In this document: piece by piece, positions 26,071 through 28,072 of the stretch
Layout: every line of letters begins with the position of its first letter
How positions within the stretch are numbered: the first letter of the stretch is position 1
Origin: an uncultured Coleofasciculus sp.
GTDB taxonomy: Bacteria > Cyanobacteriota > Cyanobacteriia > Cyanobacteriales > Coleofasciculaceae
Direction of reading: 5' to 3'
Assembly: GCA_902805485.1 (NCBI GenBank)
Contig: CADCTM010000619.1
Location: forward strand, 2,419 to 30,937
DNA length: 28,519 nucleotides
Notes under the pieces: model-generated
Seen by the model: only the letters and a program-made list of their open reading frames with translations
What the model was told of the DNA's origin: nothing
Database searches by the model: none
Program-made: the position numbers and the translations under genes

Positions 26071-26096
26071 TAATCTACAGATTATCTATCGGAATA
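26071..26096 (+). promoter_or_regulatory. Shared upstream motif, copy A (before gamma-glutamylcyclotransferase)
   Basis: TAATCTACAGATTATCTATCGGAATA; aligns without gaps with copies at 27863 and 28047. Confidence 0.6.
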
Positions 26097-26161
26097 GGTA
26101 GTTTTTCAAAATTGCTTTTGCTAAACTTCTTATAAGTCAATAAGTAGTCCCTATTGAAATT

Positions 26162-26722
26162 ATGAGTATTCAGCTTAGACAAGTTCAAGATGAACTGCCA
26201 GAGTGCAAGCCGACCGGGCAAACGTTCCTCTACTTTGCCTATGGCTCTTGTATGTGTCCGGTGGATCTCAAACGAACTCTTGGGGAGAATACTCATGCTT
26301 TTGTGGTGGGAGTGGCAACGCTCAAAGGCTACAGACTGAGCTTTAACCGCCGTTCAGTGTTGCGTAACTGCGGTGTACTGGATGTTGTGAAAGACTCAAC
26401 GGCGTCTCTGGAAGGGGTGCTATATCGCTTGCCGTGGCGATTGAGCGCTGTCCTTGATGAACGGGAAGAAGTGCCCCAAGGCGGCTATCGTCAGGAAATG
26501 ATTAATGTTTCTTGCGGTAATCAAATATACACGGGCGTCCGTACCTACGTCGTGGTCAATAAGTTGACACAAGAACTCGCGCCGAATGATTGGTATTTTA
26601 ATGTTGTCCTTCGAGGTGCGATTACTTGCGGACTGTCAGAGGAGTATTGCTGGAAGTTGTTTGACCATATGCACCAATTACAACGGCATCATTGGGAAAC
26701 GCGGTCTTTGCGATCGGCTTAA
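26162..26722 (+). CDS. Gamma-glutamylcyclotransferase (AIG2/GGCT-like)
   Basis: YFAYGSCM motif, YRLSF, GVLY, LDEREEV. Confidence 0.88.
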   Translation: MSIQLRQVQDELPECKPTGQTFLYFAYGSCMCPVDLKRTLGENTHAFVVGVATLKGYRLSFNRRSVLRNCGVLDVVKDSTASLEGVLYRLPWRLSAVLDEREEVPQGGYRQEMINVSCGNQIYTGVRTYVVVNKLTQELAPNDWYFNVVLRGAITCGLSEEYCWKLFDHMHQLQRHHWETRSLRSA

Positions 26723-26777
26723 GTAGCTCAATGCCGTGTCGGGGCACAAAGCTTGGCAACGGAGGCGAAATAGATTA

Positions 26778-26804
26778 TGTGGGCGTATGCGATACGCCCA
26801 TACA
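26778..26804. repeat. REP-like hairpin between convergent genes
   Basis: tgtgggcgtatgcgatacgcccataca with gggcgtat/atacgccc stem. Confidence 0.65.
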
Positions 26805-26815
26805 GTGTCATTCCT

Positions 26816-27805
26816 CTAATGTGCAATGCTAATTGGAGAACGTTGATGAGCAACATTGACCTCAATCGGTTCTAGCTCTTGGAAGAGAGCTGTACTGAGG
26901 TAGCGTTCGCCAAAACTCGGTTGGATCATGACGATTAACTTGTCAGCATTTTCGGGACGTTTAGCAACCTGAATTGCGGCATATAGAGCCGCGCCAGAGG
27001 AGATGCCGGATAATAAACCTTCTTCTCTTGCCAAACGACGCCCATAAGCGATCGCCTCTTCATCACTAACCCGAATCACTTCATCAATTAACTCGACACG
27101 AAGCACTTTTGGGATAAACCCAGCGCCAATTCCTTGAATTTTATGCGCTCCCGGTTCGCCGCCAGACAATACAGGACTTTTGATAGGTTCAACGGCGATC
27201 GCTTGAAAGCTCGGTTTGCGCTCTTTAATCACCTCGGCAATGCCTGTCAACGTGCCGCCGGTGCCAATGCCAGAGATCAGAATGTCTACCATCCCGTCTG
27301 TATCTTCCCAAATTTCCTCGGCTGTGGTTTCCCGGTGGATTTGGGGATTTGCTGGGTTTTGGAACTGTTGCAACATAAAAGCGTTGGGCGTGTTGGCGAC
27401 TATTTCTTCAGCACGAGCGATCGCTCCGTTCATGCCTTTGATGCCTGGTGTCAGTTCCACCTTTGCCCCATAACCTTTAAGCATTGTCCGCCGTTCTGTA
27501 CTCATTGTGTCCGGCATTGTTAAGATTAACTGATAACCTTTTGCCGCTGCTGCCATCGCCAGAGCAATGCCGGTATTACCGCTCGTTGGTTCTACTAAAA
27601 TCGTTTTCCCTGGTTGAATTTGACCAGCTTCTTCGGCGGCGCGAATCATACTAACGCCAATGCGGTCTTTTACGGAAGACGCCGGGTTCATCCCTTCCAG
27701 CTTTACAAGAATTCGTGCCACACACCCTTCAGCTTGGGGAATCCGATTAAGCTGTACTAGGGGAGTATGACCAATCAACTCTGTTATGTCATGAGCAATT
27801 CGCAT
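26816..27805 (-). CDS. cysK: Cysteine synthase A (O-acetylserine thiol-lyase)
   Basis: IGHTPLV, PLP lysine in [42 protein letters not shown]. Confidence 0.96.
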
Positions 27806-27862
27806 AGTTTTTCCTCAACCGAATTAAGTTAAGACGCCTTGTGTTAAATAGTTGTCCTTCTT

Positions 27863-27888
27863 TATACTACGGTTTATCTATTGGCATT
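27863..27888. promoter_or_regulatory. Shared upstream motif, copy B (before cysK)
   Basis: TATACTACGGTTTATCTATTGGCATT, about 58 bp from the cysK ATG. Confidence 0.6.
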
Positions 27889-28046
27889 TGGTAGTTCTGT
27901 TAAAGTTTTATTAATATATTGTTGGACTTTCTGAGCAAGGGAGCGAGCGGCTGACTACTCAAAAAATGTGAGCAGGATTGTCCGGCTAACTGCAAACCCG
28001 ATAACCTTAGTGTATCGAAGCCTTAGTGTAGCGGGAAAAATTTTCG

Positions 28047-28072
28047 CTTTATACGGTTTGTCTATCGGAATA
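28047..28072 (+). promoter_or_regulatory. Shared upstream motif, copy C (before the SBP56 gene)
   Basis: CTTTATACGGTTTGTCTATCGGAATA, about 65 bp from the ATG at 28137. Confidence 0.6.

Follow-up and report, generated by a model that had tools for sequence, protein, structure and literature searches.

A conserved 26-bp box ahead of sulfur-salvage genes in cyanobacteria, a candidate CymR-type operator

A 26-bp sequence that occurs three times near the end of a stretch of cyanobacterial DNA (the window: 28,519 nucleotides from an uncultured Coleofasciculus sp., NCBI GenBank assembly GCA_902805485.1, contig CADCTM010000619.1, positions 2,419 to 30,937 of the forward strand) is most likely an undescribed cyanobacterial operator of the CymR type that serves a small sulfur-salvage regulon. 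The sequence, here called the box, stands close to genes encoding a gamma-glutamylcyclotransferase of the GGCT/ChaC type, the O-acetylserine sulfhydrylase CysK, and a protein of the SBP56 (methanethiol oxidase) family. The box is very probably a transcription factor site, located either immediately 5' of the -35 element of predicted sigma-70-type promoters or over that element. On balance, we favor the reading that the boxes are copies of an ancient cyanobacterial site whose binder is a CymR-like protein of the Rrf2 family (designated Rrf2-A) and whose targets form a small sulfur-salvage regulon; the identity of the binder, the sign of the regulation, and the sulfur signal are what we infer, the latter two by analogy. 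Transcriptional sulfur sensing in cyanobacteria is poorly understood, and we know of no operator that has been described for a sulfur regulator of this phylum.

The window belongs to contig C619 of a draft genome (G000) that comprises 4.9 Mb in 948 contigs and is 88.6% complete. The original prediction, made from the letters of the window alone, described three related 26-mers on the plus strand, and all three were recovered at the positions listed in Table 1. A degenerate core (TACRGWTTRTCTATYGGMAT) matches the window exactly three times, whereas 0.04 matches are expected from 100 shuffles. Additionally, the three boxes are the sole matches with two or fewer mismatches in the whole draft genome, and in a position weight matrix (PWM) scan of 9.7 million G000 positions everything apart from the boxes (scores in Table 1) reached 16.5 or less. 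The distance from the end of a box to the start codon is 65 nt for the GGCT-like gene (26162), 64 nt for SBP56 (28137), and 57 nt for cysK (27805, opposite strand). These distances are close to those originally described, and Pfam and NCBIfam agree with the gene identities that had been proposed (AIG2_2/GGACT, cysK equivalog, and SBP56).

The box is conserved well beyond the window. Twenty-three sites were aligned (alignment A2) to give the 26-bp consensus TAAWCTACRGTTTRTCTATCGGAATA, and the same sites were used to build a sequence-only covariance model (R1). One unpublished genome (G003) supplies one of the 23 rows of A2 and R1 (site L007) and is counted in the tallies of relatives, family sites, Crp-like genes, and Rrf2-A; no conclusion depends on it. 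Of 61 related genomes, 45 contain the core pattern with at most two mismatches, a frequency that greatly exceeds that of a reversed-pattern control. In at least 15 relatives the box precedes the GGCT-like orthologue with unchanged orientation, and synteny with an upstream gene encoding a 574-aa repeat protein is conserved there. R1 detects one to four sites per genome within the family; in the order it detects sites in 35 of the 151 high-quality genomes sampled (representing more than 15 families), and it also detects sites in further orders of the class. When all fetched loci were pooled, 86 distinct sites had PWM scores of at least 22, and all 86 share one orientation.

The genes that follow these 86 sites define the conserved targets. 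A GGCT-like gene follows the box at 40 sites from many families and orders, a gene encoding a Crp/Fnr-family regulator follows at 16 sites from many families, and a gene encoding a cupin of the acireductone dioxygenase (ARD) family follows at 6 sites. SBP56 follows the box at two sites, both in the window, and genes of the phospholipase D (PLD) family, the PAP2 family, and two small families of no named function follow at one or two sites each. The boxes that precede the PLD-family gene (L069, G014) and the PAP2 phosphatase gene (L080, G023) score lower (PWM of about 26-27) and hint that some genomes place lipid remodelling under the box. SBP56 in five relatives (G014, G017, G033, G061, and G062) lies directly behind the GGCT-like gene with a single box ahead of the pair; thus, joint control of both genes is the conserved state. 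In G000, cysK separates the two genes, and SBP56 carries its own boxes. The original prediction had coupled all three genes under one repressor; joint control of GGCT and SBP56 fits the comparative data, but membership of cysK is doubtful. The conserved core consists of the GGCT-like gene, the Crp-family regulator, and ARD, and the regulon is smaller than, and differently composed from, what had been guessed. In the PWM scan, no box was found upstream of the ARD homologue of G000 on contig C923.

Box 2 does lie near the start of cysK, as predicted, but it is not aimed at that gene: its location on the plus strand directs it away from cysK and toward SBP56. No box was found ahead of the convergent cysK counterpart in G021 and G008, and the sister genome G001 carries a decayed relic of the box at the cysK place and has no SBP56 there. 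Thus, the orientation of box 2 and its lack of conservation make cysK at best a lineage-specific target. Box 2, together with the predicted promoter P2, may instead constitute a second, distal promoter module of SBP56.

Placement of the box relative to the promoter follows two patterns. In orthologous GGCT promoters, only two blocks are retained 3' of the box, TTGnnT after 2-3 nt and (TG)nTAnAAT 17 nt further, and these conserved blocks are the predicted -35/-10 pair of a sigma-70-type promoter. The corresponding promoters of the window (P1-P3 in Table 1) are called on the basis of this cross-species conservation and not of a generic sigma-70 scan, which missed all three (4 matches versus 3.4 expected). 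Relative to the start predicted for promoters of the P1-P3 type, the box would cover roughly -64 to -39. In the predicted promoters of the Crp-like genes, the end of the box is 15 nt from an extended -10 element, 11 bp closer than in the GGCT type, and the box covers the -35 position.

The first line of evidence for a CymR-type site comes from the box itself. The consensus for Bacillus subtilis CymR, TAAWNCN2ANTWNAN3ATMGGAATTW, is said to come from Even et al. 2006. This reported consensus was scanned over 185,579 species genomes. Among the matches listed, Bacillales account for 45 of 80 loci, and at least seven of the listed sites precede CysK/MccA-like genes at a fixed distance of 1.2-1.9 kb, as is expected for the CymR-controlled yrrT-mtnN-mccAB operon (PMC3519770). 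The enrichment in Bacillales and the placement relative to CysK/MccA-like genes indicate that the pattern is a genuine Bacillales cysteine-regulon operator. A profile of 81 cyanobacterial sites aligns best with this pattern position 1 on position 1, with a score of 19.95, whereas 2000 column shuffles averaged 3.9 and peaked at 17.4, none of them reaching the observed score (0/2000). The cyanobacterial and the CymR box each span 26-27 bp and share a register in which TAAW marks one end and ATMGGAAT the opposite end, and TAAW and ATCGGAAT stand at matching spacing in the cyanobacterial profile and the CymR pattern, although the interiors differ. The resemblance to CymR boxes and Rrf2-family operators that had been suspected for one half of the sequence is therefore borne out by an in-register alignment that is better than all shuffles.

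The second line of evidence is a candidate regulator. The original prediction placed the regulator outside the window, and a strong candidate is indeed found on another contig (C924), where it is paired with an additional cysK. Of the two Rrf2 genes in G000, the one encoding Rrf2-A (L092:1453-1890, minus strand; 145 aa) lies immediately upstream of this second cysK; the Rrf2-cysK adjacency recurs in G015, G031, and G018. Rrf2-A contains the winged-helix Rrf2 domain (PF02082, 121.6 bits) and only two cysteines (Cys5 and Cys83), and it is without the set of three cysteines that serves as Fe-S ligands. The best NCBIfam equivalog for Rrf2-A is CymR (NF047409; 108 bits, compared with 77 for IscR), and B. 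subtilis CymR (PDB 2Y75) is the second-best match in PDB (1e-19). All 13 copies of Rrf2-A that were read (12 genomes) end in MYYI, paralogues with 52-61% identity end in MYYI or MYHI, and the C-terminus is YMFYI in five Bacillales CymR proteins that exceed the equivalog cut-off. Serine acetyltransferase and other CysK partners insert a C-terminal isoleucine into the active site of CysK. Read in this light, the MYYI tail could be a CysK-docking element that plugs the active site. An end of the form M-(F/Y)-(Y/H)-I is common to Rrf2-A, Rrf2-B, the Bacillales CymR proteins (L286-L290), and the Rrf2 protein of PDB 4CIC. A predicted complex of CysK (L092) and Rrf2-A scored 0.29 against a mark of 0.34 in a run without controls and counts neither way. 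Within the family, the region upstream of the Rrf2-A-cysK operon yielded no box. Rrf2-A is the probable binder of the box.

The distribution of Rrf2-A among genomes is consistent with such a role. Within the family, Rrf2-A orthologues are present in every genus except g7 (0/5) and g14 (0/7), and no box was found in any genome searched of g7 and g14, nor in those of g2 and g11. Genus g14 retains the GGCT-like gene in seven of seven genomes, in each case without a box. In the order sample, where Rrf2-A was called at E values of 1e-30 or better, Rrf2-A is present in 34 of the 35 box-positive genomes versus 98 of 151 overall, and no box was found in the nine families without Rrf2-A. In family f5, G040 is the one genome with either feature. 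The genes are also clustered: in G169, G171, G155, and G023, the box-controlled Crp-like and ARD genes are neighbors of an Rrf2-cysK pair, and in G171 the box is located within the intergenic gap between the divergent Rrf2 and Crp-like genes.

The CymR-CysK-O-acetylserine mechanism of Bacillus is the model for the regulation proposed here (PMC2940859 and PMC3828012). When cysteine is sufficient and O-acetylserine is low, Rrf2-A would occupy the box and keep the promoters shut, and CysK would perhaps stabilize Rrf2-A on the box through the MYYI tail. Limitation for sulfur or cysteine would raise O-acetylserine, upon which Rrf2-A would leave the box and the promoters would be derepressed. The outputs would be breakdown of gamma-glutamyl peptides by the ChaC/GGCT-like cyclotransferase and oxidation of methanethiol by the SBP56 family, joined in relatives by the ARD cupin of methionine salvage and by a second-tier Crp-family regulator. 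Rrf2-A may act as a repressor, by analogy with CymR, and this sign is assigned tentatively.

The proposed system is similar to the CymR-CysK complex of B. subtilis and Staphylococcus aureus, likewise of the Rrf2 family, in that the candidate regulator lacks a cluster, ends in M(F/Y)YI, and is linked to cysK, and in that the targets fall within sulfur and cysteine salvage. It differs in that it belongs to another phylum and in the genes that it would control: the CymR regulon includes cysK, ssu, tcyP, and mccAB, whereas the cyanobacterial set includes the ChaC/GGCT-like gene, the Crp-family regulator, ARD, and SBP56. In plants, a cluster of genes that responds to O-acetylserine includes a GGCT gene. 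A class-wide O-acetylserine switch of the CymR-CysK type, with the ChaC/GGCT-like enzyme and the Crp-family second-tier regulator as its outputs, would mirror this plant cluster and could point to a logic shared since the plastid era, but such a switch is quite improbable as a whole.

Several observations weigh against CymR-type control by Rrf2-A. The 108-bit match of Rrf2-A is below the CymR equivalog cut-off of 195 bits, and by that rule Rrf2-A is not a CymR orthologue. The two halves of a CymR box form a dyad (TAATTC...GAATTA). Dyad symmetry in the cyanobacterial box is confined to the outer pentamers (TAATC / GAATA), and the interior, which is invariant and asymmetric, reads as a direct repeat of ATCTACGG and ATCTATCGG that lie 11-12 bp apart and differ by a 1-nt indel; the CymR box, in contrast, has a variable center. 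In many of the listed Bacillales sites, the center of the box holds -35- or -10-like hexamers, unlike in GGCT-type promoters, where the box abuts the core promoter (ending 2-3 nt 5' of the predicted -35) instead of covering it. When R1 was run on five Bacillales genomes, it gave weak and apparently random matches (E values of 0.08-0.9) and not CymR sites; together with the differing interiors, this makes the box a distinct variant and not the same operator. Many families have Rrf2-A but no box that was found (f2, f27, f29, and f30), and the box-positive genome G194 showed no Rrf2-A. Additionally, the naive Fisher p value for co-occurrence of the box and Rrf2-A (5.6e-7) overstates the association since related genomes are not independent.

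The asymmetric interior, the fixed orientation, and the offset of one helical turn between promoter classes suit an activator equally well or better, and the regulator might activate in an orientation-dependent manner from a position near -51.5 or -41. In a rival reading, a regulator of a different family altogether (e.g., a response regulator of the OmpR/PhoB type) would read ATCTACGG-N3-ATCTATCGG and recruit RNA polymerase from approximately -51.5 at GGCT promoters or approximately -41 at Crp-like promoters, and the link between Rrf2 and cysK would reflect shared pathway context only. The direct repeat with a period of about 11-12 bp, the single orientation at all 86 sites, the difference of one helical turn between the promoter classes, and the position of the box 5' of the -35 element in most promoters would all be accommodated, but the GGCT-type promoters already own good -35 and -10 hexamers with 17-nt spacing, and no co-occurring response regulator turned up, though none was searched for. 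Moreover, the match in the CymR register, the co-occurrence with Rrf2-A, and the gene clustering are left unexplained, and activation by a protein of another family is unlikely.

A Crp-family regulator that binds the box ahead of its own gene, and thereby controls the GGCT-like and ARD genes along with itself, is very unlikely. Autoregulated regulators often betray their own site, and 16 boxes from many families are located directly ahead of a Crp-family gene, but no orthologue with 72% identity or more was detected in the box-bearing genomes G001 (99% complete), G005 (100% complete), G034, G012, G018, and G000. The consensus is also without the palindrome of CRP/FNR-type sites, with inverted 5-bp half-sites at a 6-bp spacer (or at a 4- or 8-bp spacer). 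The Crp-like protein as universal binder was rejected on this genome distribution. In the genus of the window, the Crp-like gene is apparently being lost, as there is an in-frame TGA in G002 (C551:844-1440, L086), a partial match in G003, a paralogue with 52% identity in G001, and none in G000. The CysR protein of Synechococcus elongatus is a Crp-family regulator tied to sulfur stress and is comparable to the proposed system in that the box has a Crp-family gene among its conserved targets; it is unlike it in that the box-linked Crp-like protein cannot be the universal binder. The names given to the box-linked protein are generic only ("Crp/Fnr family"), and no source calls it CysR.

That the boxes are a chance likeness, a dispersed repeat, or an RNA-level element is extremely improbable: no gene can clearly be assigned to box 2, which lies only 184 bp from box 3, and this spacing could suggest a local duplication, but the expectation of 0.04 matches, the copy number of three in the genome, and the orthologous promoter positions across orders refute chance and a mobile repeat, while an Rfam scan of positions 25900-28519 returned nothing relevant and the location of the box upstream of the predicted -35 and -10 elements would place it outside the transcript.

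CymR-type control by Rrf2-A can also be compared with regulation by IscR of Escherichia coli. Type-2 sites of IscR are similar to the box in that they are about 26 bp long and are bound by a dimer of the Rrf2 family. IscR can either activate or repress according to the position of its site, for example upstream of the -35 element at sufA. Unlike Rrf2-A, which is without the cysteine triad and scores lower with the IscR equivalog than with that of CymR, IscR carries an Fe-S cluster.

A full-text search of the literature returned no paper that connects Rrf2 regulators of cyanobacteria with cysK or with sulfur, and neither a CymR-like regulon of cyanobacteria nor the box was found described in literature searches; absence from these searches is not proof of novelty. 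The likeness of the box and of Rrf2-A to their Bacillus counterparts suggests that CymR-type control reaches past the Firmicutes. A defined 26-bp site, a short list of conserved targets, and a named candidate regulator with CysK as a plausible sensor partner make the question of cyanobacterial sulfur sensing directly testable.

Table 1. Boxes, predicted promoters, and genes in the window (coordinates refer to the window)
Feature	Coordinates	Strand	Description
Box 1, TAATCTACAGATTATCTATCGGAATA	26071..26096	+	Operator-like site of the GGCT-like gene; PWM 39.1
Box 2, TATACTACGGTTTATCTATTGGCATT	27863..27888	+	Faces SBP56; R1 E=1.2e-5; PWM 31.4
Box 3, CTTTATACGGTTTGTCTATCGGAATA	28047..28072	+	Operator-like site of SBP56; R1 E=2.8e-5; PWM 27.9
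P1, predicted promoter	26099..26127	+	-35-like TAGTTT (26099-26104), 17-nt spacer, -10-like TAAACT (26122-26127); read from sequence
P2, predicted promoter	27892..27920	+	TAGTTC, 17 nt, TATATT; toward SBP56; read from sequence, by analogy with P1
P3, predicted promoter	28075..28104	+	TGGTTA, 18 nt, TAGAAT; read from sequence
GGCT/ChaC-like gene	26162..26722	+	Pfam AIG2_2 and GGACT domains
cysK (O-acetylserine sulfhydrylase A)	26816..27805	-	NCBIfam cysK equivalog, 474 bits; doubtful regulon member; transcribed convergently to the GGCT-like gene
SBP56-family gene (methanethiol oxidase family), 5' part	28137..28517	+	Pfam SBP56, 3.3e-51; cut by the contig end
574-aa internal-repeat protein	24290..26014	+	No Pfam family; upstream neighbor of box 1; not claimed as a regulon member

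A scan of the genome, which had been proposed together with the original prediction, returned no strong sites beyond boxes 1-3, and near sbp and cysA it returned only weak and divergent sites. The fourth and fifth best PWM matches in G000 (15.9 and 16.5) are both on the 2.8-kb contig C382 (L291:1050-1075 and 1527-1552), between a gene encoding a lipoprotein of the SBP_bac_11 sulfate-binding-protein type and a gene encoding a cysA-like ABC ATPase, with a gene for tRNA-Thr also in this interval. The site on the cysA side has a perfect left half of the box on the opposite strand. In G015, G031, and G018 (L294, L295, and L296), a conserved 26-bp palindrome, TAATCCCC-N10-GGGGATTA, lies about 100-130 nt ahead of cysA and is preceded by AAACTACAG, which resembles the left half of the box. 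These sites hint at a broader and more divergent set, and the cysA palindrome may be a second class of Rrf2-type operator.

Window positions 25700-28519 are present in biocrust and soil metagenomes from many studies. In four biocrust metatranscriptome libraries from one study, contigs span the locus and some of them extend from cysK across box 2; these contigs carry no start, strand, or level. The metagenome and metatranscriptome matches suggest that biocrust is the habitat of the organism, where scavenging of glutathione-type peptides and methanethiol might matter. Contig C619, as noted in Table 1, stops within the SBP56 gene. JGI uses the name ChaC for members of the 90% cluster to which the GGCT-like protein belongs, and the protein of the sister genome bears the label Coleofasciculaceae. 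Another GGCT-like paralogue (62% identity) is located at G000:C901:5348-5848, on a contig that has no box with a PWM score of 12 or more, and it is also present in many relatives. The gene for the 574-aa repeat protein retains its position upstream of the box and the GGCT-like gene in more than 15 genomes or loci from several families.

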